From the IMG/VR virus record IMGVR_UViG_3300028048_001169, positions 128,001 through 192,000 of that record: a DNA stretch of 64,000 nt; one strand, written 5' to 3'. Numbering within the stretch: the stretch's first letter is position 1; each line of letters opens with the position of its first letter. A model generated the notes under the pieces. It was not told the origin of the DNA, did no database searches, and was given only the letters and a program-made list of their open reading frames with translations. A program made the position numbers and the translations under genes. This DNA is from a virus. Taxonomy: Duplodnaviria > Caudoviricetes. Positions 3,001 through 17,670 of the stretch are shown one piece after another.

Positions 3001-5462
3001 TTGCTGGTAAAGGTTCAGGATTAACTGGTTATGCTGGTGGATCTTCTGAAGTTGTTTCTCAGTTAGATAGTAAATATTCCAATATTTCTGTTGGTGGTAA
3101 GTCTATGGCTGAGAATGGATGTGGACCTGCATCTGCTGTTATGGCATTGGATTCTCTTGGTAAATCATCTTCTGTAAGCAGTGCTGCTAGTATTGCTAAT
3201 AATTATCAGGTTACTGGAGGAACTGATGCATCTTACTTCCGTGATATGTTTAGTCGTAATGGTGTAGACTCTAGCTATGTACAAGGCGATGGAGTTAAAT
3301 CTGCAGTTGCTAGTGGAAATCCTGTTGTATTAATGGGACAAGATTCTAGCAATACAAGTAAAGCAAATTCACCATTTGGACCTAATAATCACTACGTTGT
3401 TGCTAATGGATACGATAGTAATGGTAACATTAATATCAGTGATCCAGAAACAGGTAACCATTCTTATAGTCCAAGTATTCTTGATAACGTTAAGATTGGT
3501 ATTGCTGCATCAGGTAGTAGACGAAGAAGAAAGCGTAACAATACGTCTTCTAGAGCTAACCATGCTGTTCATTTTGCTGCATCTGGTAGCAAAAAGAATA
3601 ACAAGACAAAGGGTGGAGCTCTTAAAATGACCATGGAGAACTGTAGAAAAGAGAATCTTGGTGTATGGTCAGAACCTACAGTAGAAGAACTCAATGCATT
3701 TATTAAGAAGAAAAACCCAACATCTCCATTCAATGGACATGGTGACGTATTTATTCGTGCTGGTAAAGCTTCTGGACTTGATCCTAGATATATCTTAGCT
3801 CATGCAGCTTTTGAATCAGCTTGGGGTACTTCTAAAATCTGTAGAGAGAAGAATAACTACTTTGGTATCGCTGCCTTCGATAGTAATCCATATAATTCTG
3901 CCAAGAGATTTGGATCTGGATTAGAAGCTGGAATTATTGGAGGTGCATGTTGGATCGCTGAGCATTACTATCACGGTTCTTATGATCAAACATGTATCTA
4001 TAAGATGAGATGGAATAACAACGTACACCAATATGCAACTGATCCAAAATGGGATACAAAGATTGCTGGTCTTATGGCTAAAATGCCTGCTAATACCAAA
4101 TTGACTTTAGCAAAGGGTGTAAAGAGCACTGTATTAAGTAGTCTGGGTGAGAGTGGATCATCTGTTTCTGGAGATGCATCTGGTGGTGTATCTGGTGATG
4201 CTACTGGTTCTTCAAGCAATTCTTCATCTACTGGATTACTTGGTTCTATCATCAATACATTCAGCAATGCTTTTGGTAAAGTCTTTGGAGGTAATGAAGA
4301 ATCTTCTGATGATTCATCATCTTCTTCATCTGATAGTGGTACTGCAAATGGTGCTGATTACACGAATTCTATCAAAACTGCAACTACTGCTGAAGGTAAA
4401 GCATTAGCAAATAGCTTTATTAATAAAGCTGCTAGTAAGATGGATTACGTTGAAGGAGCTGGAAATGATACAATGTTTGGTAAGTTTATGGGTGTAAATA
4501 AACAACCTTGGTGTGCATCATTTGTAAGCTGGGCAATGTCTGAAGCTGCTGGTGGAAAAGATAAAGCTGCTGTACCTTTACGTGGTCCTGTATCTGCATC
4601 TGTAGATGGATTATGGAGTAACTTCAAATCACATAATGCAATGACTTCAAATCCTGCTCCTGGTGATATCGTTATCTATAAGAACGGAACTTCCCACACT
4701 GGTCTTGTAGAGAAGGTAGAAGGAAATAAGATTACTACAATCGAAGGTAATACTTCTGGTGGTAATGGATTTAGTCGTAACGGTGGTATGGTTGCTCGTA
4801 AGACATTTACACTAGGAGATGGAAGCTACAAAGCAAAGCATCTTACTGGATTTGGTAGACCTGATTGGGATAATGGATCTACTGCTGCTAAAGCTGAAAA
4901 GAAGAAGCAGAATAAACGTAAGAAGCAAATGGAAAAGCATGGTACGAATGTATCTACTACAAAGCAAACTTCATTTGGTACAGTTCCTAATTACACAAGT
5001 TCCAGCTTAGGCAGTAACATGATGAATTATACCATTCCGAAAGTAGCTAAAAAGGGTGGTAAAGGATCTGGTCTTATTGGATATGGTGGCGGAGCTAGTG
5101 GATCAACTGGAAGAGTTATGCTTGATTCATCTGTATTTTCAGGTGCTATTTCTAAAGCAGAAAATACCAAAAAGGTTGGTAGTAGATCAACTACTAAGAC
5201 TGGTATCATGACATCTATGTCAAAAGACTCAGCTGCTTTACTCAAGATTATTATTGAGCTAATAACAAGTATTGTACAGAATACAGATCGTATTGAAGGA
5301 ATCTATTCATTACTTGAAACTTATTGTAATAGATCGGGTAATGCTGAACTTCAAAATGCTGTTAAGGAACAAAAGTCATCTTATGTTCCTAGAGAAACAT
5401 CTAATAATTTAGATAGTTTAGCAGATCTTCGTAGAATGTGTGATGCTATATTAGCAGGTTAA
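1..5462 (+). CDS. Giant tail-associated lytic protein (tape-measure-like), 5'-truncated by the window; C39-like peptidase, GH73 glucosaminidase and CHAP domains
   Basis: Frame is open from base 3. Long Ala/Gly/Lys-rich helical region, then ENGCGPASAVMAL...NHYVV...ISDP (C39-like), HAAFESAWG...NNYFGI...YATDPKW (GH73) and PWCASFVSW...GDIVIY...HTGLV...IEGNT (CHAP). Confidence 0.85.
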   Translation, partial: TEEEVAEELRMLMNSRNGFMKNRYKDNEKFSEEDISGLSKLISNANKNIANANTNARSSVVEMISGKMREAGYTDAEIERFTKGSKSDKYLMRMASQLGVNIKRMEKDGAKTVDSVVIDTIPGLLQNIKNAITEGVSTITQDTKTGVTKLATGIERIYNHFRYGKMGDAMNDLYSDVGDVAGTVSRLPGDLFNLGRTGVKGVSDATREMYGEYLKEQTKKYQSKKAARANRYKEHTDTAGSGSGLFGFGAGGGKVRNQFGTLVDSNEDIASQQRKKDTAMRNNALFSISSMGGGVSSLVSGMNKIVSGLFGDKKEKKKSLFSKLTELITGGTGLLGGLLSGIFGFFGGGGLSSASGIVGKVLNAFGGKGAFSNILRGALIATVGTGIVKGTYDTLANRVTNGAIGRGYGQMGTSSNASYTGLTAMDASGNMVAVAMDGNGNPVTDENGNYISTNGQALDPSRTQVTESYATRSLGERERDKIGRTLLTYGPKKAFKSSIAGFGVNKIAKSLKLDKLAGTKVGQKVVGAAKDKFNTLLGKGIINSKLGTKLAGRYEAKVAKEAAVKRAKDISKHSVQKAIARHNRKLMKRGSEKLVAESTQSAMKKIAKDAATETTKNSVYNGIKEGLTKAFNKICTVIPKFKGQQKVLAGAADDIAEAAAKKAAKQTGEAAAKIAAKVAAGFVWFTKIAFVISDFWSGYEDATTTWKVKKASTSQKLISGLLRVVLNLNPLIGMLLPDSLVMDILIDTVAPILGIDVRKIKSERAAAEEELKEYNEANGTNYSWSEYNKQVLGNYTTGEKIGNWFKNTFTSVKNVFTGGKKSSKTQKASNTATKATGASGSGLLGYAGGSSGRRTAAPSIGLDRITTGVGNYLGNDIDSKSMRDLSKMYDDMEKAAKHGNITGVTKASERTMKKLNAKNSGMSRTFGIISKLGMFAYTSTAMMNKFTAKDSVVSSTTSEVTGTDDTSNGKGKSSSKNGKGILGTIGGAIVSLGKTISGWFAGKGSGLTGYAGGSSEVVSQLDSKYSNISVGGKSMAENGCGPASAVMALDSLGKSSSVSSAASIANNYQVTGGTDASYFRDMFSRNGVDSSYVQGDGVKSAVASGNPVVLMGQDSSNTSKANSPFGPNNHYVVANGYDSNGNINISDPETGNHSYSPSILDNVKIGIAASGSRRRRKRNNTSSRANHAVHFAASGSKKNNKTKGGALKMTMENCRKENLGVWSEPTVEELNAFIKKKNPTSPFNGHGDVFIRAGKASGLDPRYILAHAAFESAWGTSKICREKNNYFGIAAFDSNPYNSAKRFGSGLEAGIIGGACWIAEHYYHGSYDQTCIYKMRWNNNVHQYATDPKWDTKIAGLMAKMPANTKLTLAKGVKSTVLSSLGESGSSVSGDASGGVSGDATGSSSNSSSTGLLGSIINTFSNAFGKVFGGNEESSDDSSSSSSDSGTANGADYTNSIKTATTAEGKALANSFINKAASKMDYVEGAGNDTMFGKFMGVNKQPWCASFVSWAMSEAAGGKDKAAVPLRGPVSASVDGLWSNFKSHNAMTSNPAPGDIVIYKNGTSHTGLVEKVEGNKITTIEGNTSGGNGFSRNGGMVARKTFTLGDGSYKAKHLTGFGRPDWDNGSTAAKAEKKKQNKRKKQMEKHGTNVSTTKQTSFGTVPNYTSSSLGSNMMNYTIPKVAKKGGKGSGLIGYGGGASGSTGRVMLDSSVFSGAISKAENTKKVGSRSTTKTGIMTSMSKDSAALLKIIIELITSIVQNTDRIEGIYSLLETYCNRSGNAELQNAVKEQKSSYVPRETSNNLDSLADLRRMCDAILAG

Positions 5463-5470
5463 AGTTTAAT

Positions 5471-5495
5471 GAGAGGGTGTCATTTTCACCCTCTC
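5471..5495 (+). terminator. Intrinsic terminator hairpin
   Basis: GAGAGGGTG...CACCCTCTC followed by a T-rich tract. Confidence 0.7.
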
Positions 5496-5543
5496 TTAAC
5501 TTTTATATAAAAGCTTTAATTATATAAATGAGGTGGTGAATTT

Positions 5544-7193
5544 ATGTCATATTCAAAAGGAACTGATGGTGGTAGTGGTGGAGCACAAACTAATGCTAAA
5601 CATGTAGAAGAAAAATTATCTGATAAAGAAAAAGAAGAAAGAAAAAGGATAGTAAAAGCTCAAAAAGCAGCATACAATGCGGTACGAAAATCTGGAAAAA
5701 AAGTATCTGATTTTGATCCATATGGAAATGATGCTGAGTTTAAGAAGCATACTAATGGAGTTGGTGGTGGCTCTTCATATATACCAGGTGTACTTACATC
5801 CGGATCTATAAATGGTATATTTGGAATGCCGTACCAATTTCTACCATCTGTAGATAGACGAGTTTATGTAGAGGGAAATACGAATGATAATACTATAATG
5901 GGTAGAAAGTATGCAGAGAAAGTTGCATCTCATCTACCATTATTATTTTTAACCCCATGTCGCCAAGTATTCATGGAGGGATTTGATGCATCAGATCAAG
6001 AGAGTGTTCTTGGTAGTATTGTAAATGGTGCCGGTATAGCTGGTGCTATTGGTGGTAATGGTGTTGTTGAAAGTAGTTTATTAAAGAAAACAGGTAGATA
6101 CTACAGTGCAAAATATGCTTGGGCTGAGTACTATCGTTGTGTAAATAAACTAGCAACACAGGTTGCTGTTTTATGCGGTTTACAGGACGAGTTATCTTCA
6201 GATGGTGTTAATCTAGCCAGTGAAGATTGGGTAAATAAAAAATTTCATAACGAAAGTTTTGATAGATATTTTGCTGCTAAAAAATCAGTTGTATTATACG
6301 TTGATGGATTAACAACAGTAGATGATTCTTTTTCAAATTCAACAACTGATTCATCATTAGCATCAACAATCAATGGTTTTGGAGAGCAAGCAAGAGAATT
6401 ACGATTTATTACTGGTGGATCTAGTGGCTTAAGTGCAATCTATGACAAAGGTTCTGAAATGGCACAAGATATAACAAAAGATCTCACATCAATTACTGAA
6501 AGATTCGGAGGAGCATCGCTTACAGAAGGTATGCTAGGAGATTTAGCAAAAACTGGTGTAAGTACTGTTTTAACTGGTGGTAAGATTATATTCCCTAAGA
6601 TTTGGGGAGATTCTTCTTATAGTAGGTCTTATAGCTTCTCTATTAAATTAAGATCACCAGATCATGATTCTTATAGTATTTATCGTAATATACTGATACC
6701 ATACTTACATTTATTAGCACTTGTAATGCCACAGTCTTTAACATCTGGTCCGGGTGCACAAAATCCAAATGCATATGATACACCGTTCTTAGTACGTGCA
6801 TATGCAAAAGGAATGTTTAATATTAATATGGGTATGATAACAAGTATGGATGTTACCAGAGGAGCAGAAGCTCAATGGAATGATCAGGGATTGCCAACAC
6901 AGATGGATATTAATATTACCATAGAAGATCTGTATACAAGTTTATATTTGTCAAACCCTAAAGGTATTAATTATTTCCGCAATACATTTGATATTATTAC
7001 GAATACTGAAATGGTAGATTACTTGGCAAATTTATCAGGTCTAAACGTTGCAGCTGAAACTGTTACACGACAAGTACAGTTGTTCAAATATATGGTGGCA
7101 GCCGACTTCGCTAGAACACCTTCAAATATTTATAATTATTTTGAAAACGGTGTTACAAATCTAATAAGAAGAGCATTTGAACGTTTATTCTAA
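5544..7193 (+). CDS. Virion structural protein (baseplate/tail-tube-initiator-like)
   Basis: 549 aa next to the tail lysin, with a late promoter at 5498. FPKIWGDSSYSRSYSFSIKL...PFLVRAY...GMITSMDVTRG...GLPTQMDINITI resembles tube-fold baseplate proteins of jumbo phages. Confidence 0.55.
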   Translation: MSYSKGTDGGSGGAQTNAKHVEEKLSDKEKEERKRIVKAQKAAYNAVRKSGKKVSDFDPYGNDAEFKKHTNGVGGGSSYIPGVLTSGSINGIFGMPYQFLPSVDRRVYVEGNTNDNTIMGRKYAEKVASHLPLLFLTPCRQVFMEGFDASDQESVLGSIVNGAGIAGAIGGNGVVESSLLKKTGRYYSAKYAWAEYYRCVNKLATQVAVLCGLQDELSSDGVNLASEDWVNKKFHNESFDRYFAAKKSVVLYVDGLTTVDDSFSNSTTDSSLASTINGFGEQARELRFITGGSSGLSAIYDKGSEMAQDITKDLTSITERFGGASLTEGMLGDLAKTGVSTVLTGGKIIFPKIWGDSSYSRSYSFSIKLRSPDHDSYSIYRNILIPYLHLLALVMPQSLTSGPGAQNPNAYDTPFLVRAYAKGMFNINMGMITSMDVTRGAEAQWNDQGLPTQMDINITIEDLYTSLYLSNPKGINYFRNTFDIITNTEMVDYLANLSGLNVAAETVTRQVQLFKYMVAADFARTPSNIYNYFENGVTNLIRRAFERLF

Positions 7194-7285
7194 GTATAAT
7201 AAATAGACAGGAATCTTTGTGTTCCTGTCTATATTTGATATTTACACGGATATTAACTTATTAATATATAAAGGAGGTAATATAC

Positions 7286-7678
7286 ATGAGTTCTATCATA
7301 CCATCACTAAACCTATCAAAAGCAATTACTGATCAGTATAACAGAGTTAACGATTTAAAAAATTCTAATGCATCTACAGAAGCATTAGGAATTGATTATA
7401 GTCGACTGGATACCAAAACAAAAGGAATGCTAAAGGATAGCATTGCATCTGCTATAGTGAATTATAAAAAGTATGACATGTATCCAGAGACAAAAGAATA
7501 CCTGGATCAGTTATTCAAACAGAATATGGGTACTTCATTTACAATTGAATATAAGAAATTAAAAGACGACTTATGTGATATTAATGTAGAGGGTAATCTA
7601 AGAGAAACCATTCAGTTGGTATTGATCAACAGAGCAAGAGAATTATATCTTGATATGACATTAAACCCTACAGTGTAA
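7286..7678 (+). CDS. Hypothetical protein; stop codon overlaps the first repeat unit
   Basis: 130 aa, AGGAGG RBS, late-type promoter AACT-N6-TA at 7255. Confidence 0.75.
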   Translation: MSSIIPSLNLSKAITDQYNRVNDLKNSNASTEALGIDYSRLDTKTKGMLKDSIASAIVNYKKYDMYPETKEYLDQLFKQNMGTSFTIEYKKLKDDLCDINVEGNLRETIQLVLINRARELYLDMTLNPTV

Positions 7679-8595
7679 ACCCGCTAAAAATAAGGGTTTT
7701 ATACTCTTGGTATACCAAGACCATATAATCCACTGTTTATGGGCTTTATGGAAGGTGTGATTTTATACTGTTTGTGCACTCTTTCAATCATTAACTTCCT
7801 GTTCGATATGGCGTCAAACCCGCTTAAAATAAGGGTTTTATACTCTTCCAATTTGGAAGACCACATAACCCAGTATTTATGGGCTTTGTAGGAGGTTTGG
7901 TTTTATAATGATTATACACCTTTTAAATAACATATAATGGTGTATTTTTTGAGATGTCCTCCCAAACCCGCTAAAAATAAGGCTTATGAACTCTTCATAT
8001 AGGGAGAGTACATAACCCAGTATTTACGGGCTTTGTGGAGGGTGTGGTTTTATAATGATTATACACCTTTCAAATAGATTCCCTGTATTTTGATATGTCG
8101 TCAAACCCGCTAAAAATAAGGGTTTTATCCTCTTCCAATAGGGAGACCATAAAATCCCGTATTTACGGGCTTTGTGAGGTATTGTTGCATAATGCTGGCT
8201 ATGTTTTTCAAATTAGAAAACCTGTATCTTGACATTGCTTCAAACCCGCTAAAAATAAGGGTTATGTACTCTCCCTAAACCAAGAGTACATAATCCACTG
8301 TTTATGGGCTTTGTGGGGTGTGGTTATATAACGATTATATACCTTCAAAATACATATCACTGTTTATTTTAGTAAGGTCTCAAACCCGCTTAAAATAAGG
8401 GTTATGTACTCTTGGTATACCAAGAGCACATAATCCAGTATTTATGGGCTTTGTAGAAGGTTTGATTTTATAATGATTATATACCTTCAAAATACATATC
8501 ACTGTTTATTTTAGTAAGGTCTCAAACCCGCTTAAAATAAGGGTTTTATACTCTCCCAATACCAAGAGCACATAACCCAGTATTTATGGGCTTTG
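7677..8595. repeat. Degenerate tandem array of 7 palindromic units, period 139-148 bp
   Basis: AAACCCGCT(A/T)AAAATAAGG starts at 7677, 7816, 7964, 8103, 8242, 8382 and 8524. Each is followed ~40 nt later by ATAA(C/T)CC..T(A/G)TTTA(C/T)GGGCTTT. Confidence 0.95.
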
Positions 8596-8610
8596 CTTAA
8601 AAATATTTTG

Positions 8611-8624
8611 AATCATATATTATA
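8611..8624 (+). promoter_or_regulatory. Early (virion RNAP) promoter AATCATATATTATA
   Basis: Same motif at 12239, 33775, 54967, 56621, with variants at 40334 and 27635; resembles the TATATTAC/T early promoters of phiKZ/AR9. Confidence 0.75.
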
Positions 8625-8677
8625 AATGTGGTAATATATAAGCTCGTCTATAATTATAACGTAAAAAGGAGGATATT

Positions 8678-9283
8678 ATGAATAACGAGTTTAATTTTCA
8701 AGAAACAATCGATCAGATTCAAGAATTCACTGCATTGGATTTAGGTACAGTAAAAGTATTTAAAGCTGATAACCAACATCCATATTTTGATCTTATTGAT
8801 GTATGCAAGATTATTGGATTTTCTTCTTCTGACGCTACATCAAGAATGAAGCAAGAACTAATTTGTATGAGTAGTGCTCTACATTCATTAAGCGGTAAGT
8901 ATAAGTTTATTAATGAATATCCTGTTATGATTGATATTAGAACAACAGAAATAGCATCTGGTCGTGGTTTTGGCGGAAAATCTTATGAACGAAATGTTAC
9001 TAAAACATATATATCAGAGTCTGCTATGTATCATATCATAGGAAGAGCATCAACTCCGAGTGCAATGATATTTAATGCTTGGGTAAGTGCTGTATTACTT
9101 CCTAAAGTAAGACAAGTTGGAGCTGATCGTTCTATTGAGTTATTAGAGGAGGAGATTCAGAAGTTAAAGTTGGAAGTACTTAATAAGCAAAATGCAATTG
9201 ATCGTTGGGAGAACTATATTACAAAGAACGGAGGAATTCAAATCAATATGTCTGATTTTATCAGATCTAATTTAGAGGCATAA
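8678..9283 (+). CDS. BRO-N family DNA-binding protein
   Basis: GTVKVF...PYFDLIDVCKIIG...YISESAMYHII...AMIFNAWVSAVLLPKVRQ follows the Bro-N pattern; C-terminal coiled coil. Confidence 0.8.
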   Translation: MNNEFNFQETIDQIQEFTALDLGTVKVFKADNQHPYFDLIDVCKIIGFSSSDATSRMKQELICMSSALHSLSGKYKFINEYPVMIDIRTTEIASGRGFGGKSYERNVTKTYISESAMYHIIGRASTPSAMIFNAWVSAVLLPKVRQVGADRSIELLEEEIQKLKLEVLNKQNAIDRWENYITKNGGIQINMSDFIRSNLEA

Positions 9284-9307
9284 ACTGTAGTAAAGGAGTG
9301 TAACACT

Positions 9308-10669
9308 TTGAATTTAGAAGAATCACGTATTACGGTTAACTATTCTTATCCTGATAATATGGATTGGGAATACACAGCACACATGGAGCGTATTGACTTT
9401 GATAAAGAATGTGCTTTAGATATAGAAACTGGAAATGGTTTCATTATAGCGCCACCAAAGACAACTATTAAGAAGGATATTAAAGATCCAGATGGAATCT
9501 TTAGTCCTAAATTTGGTCAGAAATTGGGAGATCTAAATCCATTCATTGATCGTTATAGTTGTGAATGTGGTAATTTAAAATCACGTATCAACAATGGTAT
9601 TGAATGTCCTATATGCCATACGAAATGTAAATCTGTTGGTGATAATTTTAAGATGTTTGGATGGATTAAATTGAAACCAGAATACCCAATCATCCATCCA
9701 GATATATATGTAAACCTAGATTCATTCTTTGGACGTTCAAAATATGATAAGAAATCTCGTAATAGAGAAAAGGGGTCGAAGTTAAGAAACATTATCGAAT
9801 ATGATATTCCAATTGATCTGAATGGTAATGAATCTGAATTGATTTCAATCGAAAAACCAGATGAACCTTTCTTTGGAAAAGGAATGATTTATTTCTATAA
9901 TCATTTCGATGAAATTATGCATTATTATTATCAAAAGAATCCTAAGAAGAAAGAACTCTATGATGATATTATGAAAGATAGAGAGAAAGTATTTACACAT
10001 TCTCTACCAGTCTTCACAACACATCTTAGACCAATGGATATATCTTCTGGATCAATGTATTTTGAACGTTGTACAGCGATATATAATATGATGGTAAAGG
10101 AAGCTCATCATGTAAATAGAACTGATACAAAAGCAAATAGAACTCCAAAGGTAAAAGCACAAGAGTTGTTCAAATTACAGATGAAGTTCAACGAATTATA
10201 CACAGAGGTTGTACAAATTCTGAATGGTAAGCGTGGACAACTTAGAATGCTAGTTGGAGGAAGATATAACTTCTCTGCACGATGTGTTATTCGTCAGGAA
10301 CCTTCTTTACGAATTGATTATATCAAATTACCTTATAAAGCTTTAGTTATTATACTAAAAGCTCAGATAGAGAATTTACTCCATAGAATGTATAATATAT
10401 CATTCCAAGAAGCATATGATCGATGGGAACGATCTTTGGACAAGATAGATCCTATTATATTAAAGATTCTAAATTCTCTTATTGAACATGGTCACGTTAA
10501 TCCTGAAACTGGAGAAACAGAACCAGGAATTCCATTTATTATTAATCGAAATCCTACTATCAATTATGGTTCTATTATTCAAGTATTCTGTGTTGGTATT
10601 AATCTAAATGATTTTACCATGGCAATATCTCTCCAGGTATTAAAAGGATTATGTGCTGACTTCGACGGT
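9308..10669 (+). CDS. RNAP beta' N-terminal subunit (putative non-virion), exon 1
   Basis: GIFSPKFG, Zn finger RYSCECG...CPIC, GGRYNFSARCVI, NRNPTI and CADFDG; TTG start with GGAG RBS. Confidence 0.9.
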
Positions 10670-10991
10670 AAACGTAAAAAGTACATTGCCGTCGTTAAAG
10701 CTATCTAACTGCTGGAAACTGCTTAGAGCTTATTCTACCAAAGTGTGACAATGAATAAGATTGGACAATCAGCAACGAAGTCTCTGTATAGAGAAACGCT
10801 CAACGACTATCGAAAAGCAAAGTAATTCGAGAAATACGGTTACAATTGTTAGTAGAGTAGGGCCTAAAATTTAGGTAGGTGAAATTCCTTTAAATCCAAA
10901 CGGTAGCCAATATATGTACGGTAATAGTGCATATATTGAAGATATAGTCTGTGTTATATAGAAATATATAATGTCGTTATAATAAATAACG
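10670..10991 (+). ncRNA. Group I self-splicing intron (IA-like), no ORF
   Basis: 5' splice after the U of GGT; P1 CGACGGT/GCCGTCG; P10 GTACATT/GATGTAC; P3 GCTATC/GGTAGC; P AACTGCTGGAAA; Q AATCAGCA; P7 GACTA/TAGTC within AAGATATAGTCT; P8; P9 TTATATA-GAAA-TATATAA; terminal G at 10991. Splicing restores ADFDGD in frame. Confidence 0.93.
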
Positions 10992-17642: not shown

Positions 17643-17670
17643 GCCCAGTAGGATATAATTCCTACTGGGT
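17643..17670. terminator. Bidirectional terminator of the CCCAGTAGG family
   Basis: CCCAGTAGGA...TCCTACTGGG between convergent genes. Confidence 0.8.

Follow-up and report, generated by a model that had tools for sequence, protein, structure and literature searches.

A tandem array of seven imperfect palindromes, arisen in place near an RNA polymerase gene of an AR9-like jumbo phage of cattle rumen

The repetitive extragenic palindrome (REP) and bacterial interspersed mosaic element (BIME) clusters of enterobacteria are tandem, mosaic clusters of palindromes, for which roles in mRNA 3′ protection, termination and protein binding have been proposed. The homologous regions (hrs) of baculoviruses consist of tandem imperfect-palindrome repeats, in genomes which also carry DNA-binding BRO proteins (PMC2830988). 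Here, an array of seven palindromic units is described from a tailed phage. The window, i.e. the whole 64,000-nt stretch of DNA analysed, represents bases 128001-192000 of a 225,070-bp IMG/VR virus record (IMGVR_UViG_3300028048_001169) with an estimated completeness of 92%; positions refer to the window unless stated otherwise. The carrier of the array is an AR9-like jumbo phage of the cattle rumen, as its early promoters match those of AR9, its late motif is AR9-like and the public runs containing the locus are mostly labelled bovine gut. The array lies between a small gene, ORF130, and the genes for a Bro-N protein and a β′ fragment of a multisubunit RNA polymerase (RNAP). New here are the in-place origin of the array, the gene-order slot which it fills and the unequal conservation of its palindrome arms and linkers. 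Its putative function would most likely be to stop or insulate transcription, or to bind a protein.

A single large array was recorded in the window by Tandem Repeats Finder, at 7677-8595, with a period of 139, 6.5 copies, 77% matches and a score of 827. The sequence AAACCCGC begins at 7677, 7816, 7964, 8103, 8242, 8382 and 8524, and these are exactly the seven unit starts of the original prediction, which a model had made from the letters of the window. The unit consists of an imperfect palindrome of 73 nt and, on its 3′ side, a linker of 66-74 nt. Hairpins 1 to 7 occupy 7676-7748, 7815-7888, 7963-8035, 8102-8174, 8241-8313, 8381-8453 and 8523-8595, and linkers 1 to 6 occupy 7749-7814, 7889-7962, 8036-8101, 8175-8240, 8314-8380 and 8454-8522. 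Hairpin 1 carries a T-A base pair where the other units have C-G. The linkers are homologous to one another and allelic modules are common to several units in a mosaic pattern; the 3′ halves of linkers 5 and 6, reported originally as identical, are the same over their last 47 nt. Contigs from other samples span neighbouring units, thus the tandem layout is no assembly artefact. The array gap of 999 nt is the largest non-coding gap in the window, the remaining gaps being at most 600 nt by crude gene calls, in agreement with its earlier description as the only non-coding stretch of about 1 kb. Mini-ORFs within the units have no ribosome binding site (RBS) and are not conserved, and a search for tRNA and tmRNA found none.

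All of the pairings which had been named for the units are present in the pair table, where 86.7% of the cells are paired, compared with 27-48% after shifting the 3′ partner one to three columns. As RNA, the + strand folds into one long hairpin in six of the seven units (-20 to -28 kcal/mol, z -2.7 to -5.5), hairpin 6 being the most stable, while unit 7 forms no long hairpin on this strand (z -1.65). The long hairpin also forms in six of the seven units on the - strand, where unit 1 gives separate local hairpins, and in DNA folds units 1 and 7 favour three local hairpins. The suggestion that every unit can fold into one long hairpin therefore holds for six units on either strand and fails for unit 7 on the + strand and unit 1 on the - strand. 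Each arm forms a small dyad of its own (AAACCC-N11-GGGTTT and CCCA-N7-TGGG), and the long hairpin consequently has alternative local folds as competitors. The second palindrome ascribed to several linkers is visible in some units, but the linkers fold no better than shuffles (z -2.3 to +0.45). A 70-bp sub-period of hairpin versus linker was weak and inconsistent (z from -0.4 to 5.5), and an RNA fold of the whole array, dominated by inter-unit pairing, was uninformative.

The array arose in place, at the end of ORF130. This gene (7286-7678, + strand), a member of a small conserved family, is preceded by a strong RBS, and hairpin 1 opens with the three bases of its TAA stop. The ends of linkers 1, 3 and 4 resemble the last ~33 nt of ORF130, with scores reached by 7, 1 and 1 of 1000 shuffles, respectively; linker 4 aligns to the 3′ end of the gene over 33 nt. 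Each linker ends in a decayed copy of this segment (7636-7668, + strand), which is the template of the linker ends and the left boundary of the duplicated segment. The unit therefore began as a duplication with its left edge inside the gene. The gene end is the original copy, as the C-terminus of ORF130 is conserved across its protein family, and the fragments of it which were duplicated, being as old as the hairpins, provide a neutral reference for them.

ORF130 is a real gene: 13 of the 18 differences from another strain fall at codon position 3, and an exhaustive HMMER search recovered 18 homologues (32-50% identity), in which the motif LYLxMTLNPT is conserved at the C-terminus. The cluster of ORF130 at 90% identity likewise has 18 members. 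Its AlphaFold structure, with a pLDDT of 39.8, was unusable, and matches in an atlas amounted to leads at most. The protein seems to have arisen by internal duplication of a ~60-aa domain with the motif ITIDYxKLD..T.G.LKD.IA, since relatives carry half-size versions, and the family might have a polymerase-associated role. At the end of the gene (7668-7682), AAACCC occurs twice, 8 nt apart, as AAACCC-TACAGTGT-AAACCC. Units 2-7 have neither the intervening TACAGTGT nor one of the two AAACCC copies, so that a microhomology-mediated deletion probably came before further amplification.

The palindromes are the maintained part of the unit, because the gene-end fragments and linkers decayed while the outer arms stayed nearly unchanged. 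Of the 23 columns of the 5′ outer arm, 3 are variable; the 3′ outer arm has 6 variable columns among 20, the inner stem with the apex 18 among 31 and the linkers 46 among 65. The arms taken together (9 of 43 variable) differ from the linkers with a Fisher p of 5e-7; 5′ and 3′ arms do not differ significantly from each other. Conservation picks out the same blocks in every one of the seven copies. Strains were recovered as Logan contigs from other bovine-gut studies. One of these keeps hairpin 1, followed by a shortened linker, a second carries a unit-4-like hairpin directly 3′ of the ORF130 stop, and the differences listed for a further unit lie in the inner stem and apex. The hairpins are retained in other strains, where the linkers are shortened or reordered.

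The arms had also been said to covary. Double changes do occur at five pairs, including the example of unit 4 versus unit 5, but not beyond chance: the covariation score was matched by 31 of 500 per-column shuffles, and when entire 3′ arms were exchanged among the units, 13% of all 5040 permutations paired as well as the observed order (p = 0.13), seven related units giving such tests little power. The proposal that the palindromes are under constraint is supported by the conservation of the arms relative to the co-duplicated linkers and gene-end fragments and by the persistence of the hairpins across strains, not by covariation.

It is unlikely that the array is simply a non-functional tandem duplication, kept alike by concerted evolution (unequal crossing-over or gene conversion) with the palindromes as preferred conversion tracts. 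Such a history would fit the duplication in place, the mosaic allelic modules and identical 47-nt block, the variation of unit order and content between strains, the missing counterpart in relatives and the non-significant covariation. Conversion alone, however, should homogenise contiguous tracts wherever they are placed, whereas the conservation within units is strongly non-uniform and picks out the same blocks in seven copies (p = 5e-7). In addition, hairpin 1 was kept in a strain of another study in which a linker has been partly lost. The original prediction had taken a lack of covariation, of an array in relatives and of an origin signal as pointing to neutral duplication. This is largely what was found, but the unequal conservation within the unit argues against a purely neutral duplication.

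The locus was compared with the relatives of the phage. An ORF130-like gene is situated directly upstream of β′ in two related phages, and one small gene away from β′ in G003. In G001 there is a by-eye motif resemblance only, in a small ORF two genes from β′, which sequence searches did not confirm; the genes farther upstream differ in this phage. Loci of the ORF130 family are found at 9504-9773 in L077, about 9713-9940 in L081, 9150-9374 in L073 and, with the motif seen by eye only, 5176-5370 in L012. The ORF130/β′ junction is a slot, filled here by the array, an early promoter and the Bro-N gene. As it lies between genes which are close neighbours in relatives, the array is a lineage-specific addition.

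No further copies were found, either in the genome or in related jumbo phages, where the original prediction had suggested looking for them. A covariance model and pattern scans detect only the seven units in the 225-kb genome, and the conserved arm motifs do not occur elsewhere in it. The 11 relatives found via RNAP β′ (21-61% identity, ten of them at 43-61%) contain no model match and no comparable array. There was no match to 7200-9300 by blastn among 50,697 phage records. Exact-pattern scans of IMG/VR and metagenome contigs gave single chance matches only, all of which the covariance model rejects as array members (best E = 0.019, none with the full hairpin). Probing IMG/VR with the 549-aa virion protein encoded upstream, Bro and the ORF130 alignment returned no loci and no close relative of Bro. 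A search of Rfam with both strands, at E up to 10, recovered no family, only chance microRNA-precursor-like matches to the long hairpin. The 141-nt repeats of L079 and L080 are coding and were ruled out as a counterpart of the array. They form 14 tandem copies at 5187-7103, a few kb upstream of β′, and encode 47-aa units with a DHKGNKF..EMCxYWGI motif.

A replication origin or packaging (pac) site built from cruciform-forming repeats, one of three functions put forward originally, is highly improbable. The array is single-copy, repeat-rich and non-coding, it lies beside an AT-rich promoter, and large eukaryotic DNA viruses are known to have origins built of palindromic repeats. Against this, the cumulative GC skew climbs steadily across the locus with no inflection, and the neighbourhood, otherwise uninformative, has no gene for an initiator, helicase-loader, terminase, ParA/ParB or tubulin; ParA, ParB and tubulin genes were not found in the whole genome either. 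A lineage-specific insertion between neighbouring genes, with no equivalent in relatives, is also unexpected for an essential cis-acting site. A Chi-site role of AGCGG, present on the - strand of every unit, was dropped, as this 5-mer shows only a modest genome-wide strand bias.

The array shares the orientation of ORF130, from which no terminator separates it, and it stops where an AR9-type early promoter for the virion RNAP begins. This promoter (8589-8637, + strand) has its core TCATATATTATAA at 8613-8625 and a predicted start at G8630. The early promoter motif of Bacillus phage AR9 is AAATATATATTAT-(6N)-G, and is matched by the motif of this phage (PMC5312081). The genome contains 28 copies of the latter, with the core TCATATATTAT-6N-G; almost all of them precede an RBS and lie on the + strand. 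The extended consensus reads GTAAAAT-N6-TTT-N3-TCATATATTATAAAT, with the G about 6 nt downstream. In a weight matrix built from the 28 copies, the 8589-8637 copy included, this promoter scores 37 bits and is the only match in 7600-8660, there being none inside the array. Descent of the linkers from early promoters by decay was rejected, as they have no significant similarity to the promoter region after the array.

The late motif, [AC]ACAT-N4-ATAAT, was derived from forty gene-proximal instances and is enriched four to five times over spacing or sequence controls in the region 10-60 nt ahead of gene starts; it is sharper than AACA-N6-TA. On the - strand of the array, an (A/T)ACA-N6/7-T(A/G) string stands at the same position in all six linkers. 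Although regular expressions match there, late promoters on this strand were rejected, as the strings score at chance level: 1-3.9 bits, compared with medians of 13.1 for gene-proximal instances and 3.5 inside coding sequence. Host sigma-70 promoters (TTGAyA-16/18-wAAAAT), considered at four junctions, were also rejected, with 11 found compared with 16.5 expected in shuffles.

The absence of promoters bears directly on another of the original proposals, a processed multi-hairpin RNA. Independent or processed small RNAs, with one product of ~70-140 nt per unit from either strand acting as regulators or decoys in the manner of tandem sRNA genes, type III antitoxin repeats or guide-RNA arrays, are very unlikely. 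The hairpins are stable on both strands, the - strand inner stem followed by UUAUUUUU is terminator-like in three units, and the linker strings recur at one position, all of which would favour such RNAs. These strings nevertheless score no better than coding-sequence matches, and the array holds no promoter of either phage class. There is also no Rfam match, no GGY/NN periodicity, no adjacent cas, vipr or toxin gene, no complementary target of at least 15 nt elsewhere in the genome and no strand bias of the wobble pairs.

The reading which we tentatively favour, at clearly less than even chance, is that of a transcribed stack of terminator-type stem-loops which would insulate the Bro/β′ early operon, comparable to REP/BIME clusters. 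It is preferred because there is no terminator after ORF130, the array is co-oriented with this gene and ends against a promoter, and its flanks and arm ends are like those of the phage's terminators. An intrinsic terminator is a stable stem-loop which closes a transcription unit in the orientation of the gene before it, and in this respect hairpin 1, at the ORF130 stop, fits. With AAAAATAA on one side and AGTATTTAT on the other, the inner stem has the layout of a bidirectional terminator, and the 3′ arm, CCCAGTA..TGGGCTTTG, shares both ends with the stereotyped terminator of the phage, CCCAGTAGG-N-CCTACTGGGCTTTT. In our reading of the folds, a terminator hairpin directly precedes about 10 of the 28 early promoters, and hairpin 7 holds this same position.

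The duplicated segment began in the last ~33 nt of ORF130 and included the 73-nt palindrome from the stop codon and about 40 nt of downstream sequence. Once seven copies had formed, decay affected the gene-end fragments and the remaining parts of the linkers, while the outer arms stayed nearly unchanged. In the proposed mechanism, the array, which has no promoter of its own, would be transcribed as the 3′ tail of the ORF130 message. Its A-tract/stem/U-rich stem-loops may then act as a series of leaky terminators and as 3′-end protection. This stack would shield the Bro/RNAP-β′ early operon from upstream read-through, and the phage might benefit from having seven copies.

Several observations weigh against a terminator stack. 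The + strand tail after the inner stem is AGUAUUUAU, an interrupted and weak U-rich tract, although some bona fide-looking terminators of the phage have tails which are equally weak. A terminator scan flags the array hairpins on the - strand only, in three units with the tail UUAUUUUU. The normal terminators of the phage are compact GC-rich stems of 9-17 bp, not 73-nt imperfect palindromes, and hairpin 7, which adjoins the promoter, is the least stable on the + strand. The covariation is not significant. A wobble strand bias is likewise absent, with 11 G.U and 8 A.C cells on the + strand, the latter being those that would read as G.U on the - strand. Those positions of the 5′ arm which are unpaired (GCT, ATAA) do not vary among the units, although a purely structural or terminator role does not need this. 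Nor does a terminator stack account for a need for seven copies.

The main rival of the terminator stack is the third function offered originally, an array of protein-binding sites on the DNA itself. The conserved arms would be bound by a sequence-specific, probably dimeric protein, and the array would thereby enhance or silence the early promoter or have some other cis-acting role. This is rather unlikely, even as the main rival, and the putative product of the neighbouring Bro-N gene is an obvious candidate binder. It would account for the conservation of sequence, and not only of pairing, in the arms, unpaired positions included, for wobble pairs without an RNA strand signature and for the lack of an internal promoter. 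The motif is confined to one locus, a variable gene-order slot, where it adjoins the early promoter and the sole Bro-N gene of the genome. BRO proteins bind DNA, and the baculovirus hrs are tandem repeats of 30-bp imperfect palindromes (PMC2830988). The half-site spacing is unusual, however, and absence from all 11 relatives means that the array serves no core function. The adjacency to Bro may be a coincidence of insertion, a single locus contrasts with the dispersed hrs, and imperfect palindromes are unlikely to extrude as cruciforms. A narrower version, distinctly unlikely and drawn by analogy, would make the array a phage counterpart of the hrs: a Bro-associated palindromic cis-regulatory array, bound by Bro-N or another early protein, which might control the early promoter of a non-virion RNAP subunit gene or nucleate replication or organisation of the chromosome.

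The Bro-N gene, or anti-repressor-like gene (8678-9283, + strand), matches Pfam PF02498 at 1.1e-10 and the PHROG Ant families; it is the only Bro-N gene of the genome and shares the gene-order slot with the array. It is followed by the gene for the β′ N-terminal fragment of the multisubunit RNAP (9308-10708, + strand; PHROG 2987 at 3.7e-57 and Pfam RNA_pol_Rpb1_2). Coverage in the RNA run X24 is limited to the Bro gene, at a depth of ~2, and lack of cover on the array is not evidence. Upstream of ORF130 lies the gene for the 549-aa virion protein, after which an intrinsic terminator is found at 7203-7232 (+ strand), with a 12-bp stem and a T-rich tail and detected on both strands. A further flanking gene encodes a tail lysin of 1809 aa with C39-like peptidase, glucosaminidase and CHAP domains.

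The stereotyped palindromic terminator, CCCAGTAGG-N6-10-CCTACTGGG, is present in eight copies, each a perfect palindrome with a variable loop and T-rich flanks on both sides. These are located at genome positions 11697, 16703, 32413, 145644, 152418, 155500, 173410 and 219610, and those in the window are at 17644, 24418, 27500 and 45410. It is a reused or mobile module. In L073 (53% β′ identity), ~4 kb upstream of the ORF130-like and β′ genes (5500-9400) contain only short ORFs, together with degenerate T-rich repeats (ACTCATT.., TAATATTGTT, GATTCATT) for which Tandem Repeats Finder reports periods of 73 and 109. In the closest relatives, the β′ gene of L077 (12575-13695), and also that of L075 (11043-11711), is seemingly split by two non-coding inserts of ~0.5 kb. 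The inserts flank a short exon which encodes the ..ADYDGD.. catalytic motif and are intron-like. Introns are known for AR9-type phages.

If the hairpins are functional, the array would clearly exemplify, for a jumbo phage, the amplification of a cis-acting palindrome in place and its subsequent retention copy by copy, with the co-duplicated gene-end fragments as a built-in neutral control. It would also offer a handle on how AR9-like phages separate the transcription units of their two multisubunit RNAPs. Were protein binding the correct explanation, the array would reveal regulation of the early promoter for a polymerase subunit gene. In addition, the ORF130/β′ junction is marked as a slot for inserted extra genes such as Bro. 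If there has been only selfish or neutral amplification, the array is a minor curiosity.

Among known systems, tandem non-coding RNA arrays (CRISPR, VIPR vrRNA, type III antitoxin repeats and tandem small-RNA genes) share with the array regularly spaced structured elements which alternate with variable segments. The ‘spacers’ of the array, in contrast, are mutually homologous and partly derived from a gene end, and its repeat is 73 nt long. A CRISPR array was rejected on account of the homologous linkers, a best CRISPR direct-repeat match of E = 3.2 and no cas genes nearby. VIPR vrRNA arrays are defined by 9-16 YNNGG (GGY/NN) pentamer repeats and a conserved tail (bioRxiv 10.64898/2026.04.26.720920); the units show no pentamer periodicity and there is no adjacent vipr gene. 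Tandem small-RNA genes were set aside, as there is no promoter per unit: none by the early matrix, late strings at the level of coding matches and sigma-70 promoters not enriched. An iteron-type origin was also discarded, given no skew inflection, no initiator among the neighbours and a period of 139 bp, compared with about 17-22 bp for iterons.

The array resembles the baculovirus hrs in its tandem repeats, each centred on an imperfect palindrome and variable between strains, and in its location beside a Bro-N gene at a rearrangement-prone junction. It differs in having a 139-bp unit with a 73-nt palindrome, compared with about 70 bp and a 30-bp palindrome, and in forming one locus instead of several dispersed regions. 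An IE-1-like binder and enhancer or origin activity belong to the hrs, whereas the array is known as sequence alone. The host domain is also entirely different, and the likeness is one of analogy only.

The phage's own terminator family (CCCAGTAGG-N6-10-CCTACTGGG(C)TTTT and others) has the same succession of A-rich flank, stem and T-rich flank, shares CCCAGTA and TGGGCTTT with the 3′ arm of the array, and is likewise placed directly upstream of an AR9-type early promoter. The array hairpins are far longer than these terminators, imperfect, followed by a weak + strand U-tract and arranged in seven copies with linkers.

REP/BIME clusters differ from the array in being a dispersed family, whereas the array is a single locus, and in palindromes of about 35 nt which alternate in orientation, whereas those of the array are 73 nt and all point the same way. 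The array also sits in a phage genome, and the Y1/RAYT transposase of the REP/BIME type (PF01797) is absent from the 225-kb record. Like REP/BIME, the array is a tandem cluster of extragenic imperfect palindromes which directly follows the stop codon of a gene, in the transcribed orientation. The two are also alike in tandem amplification with linkers, in mosaic motif variants across the units and in the roles proposed for them.

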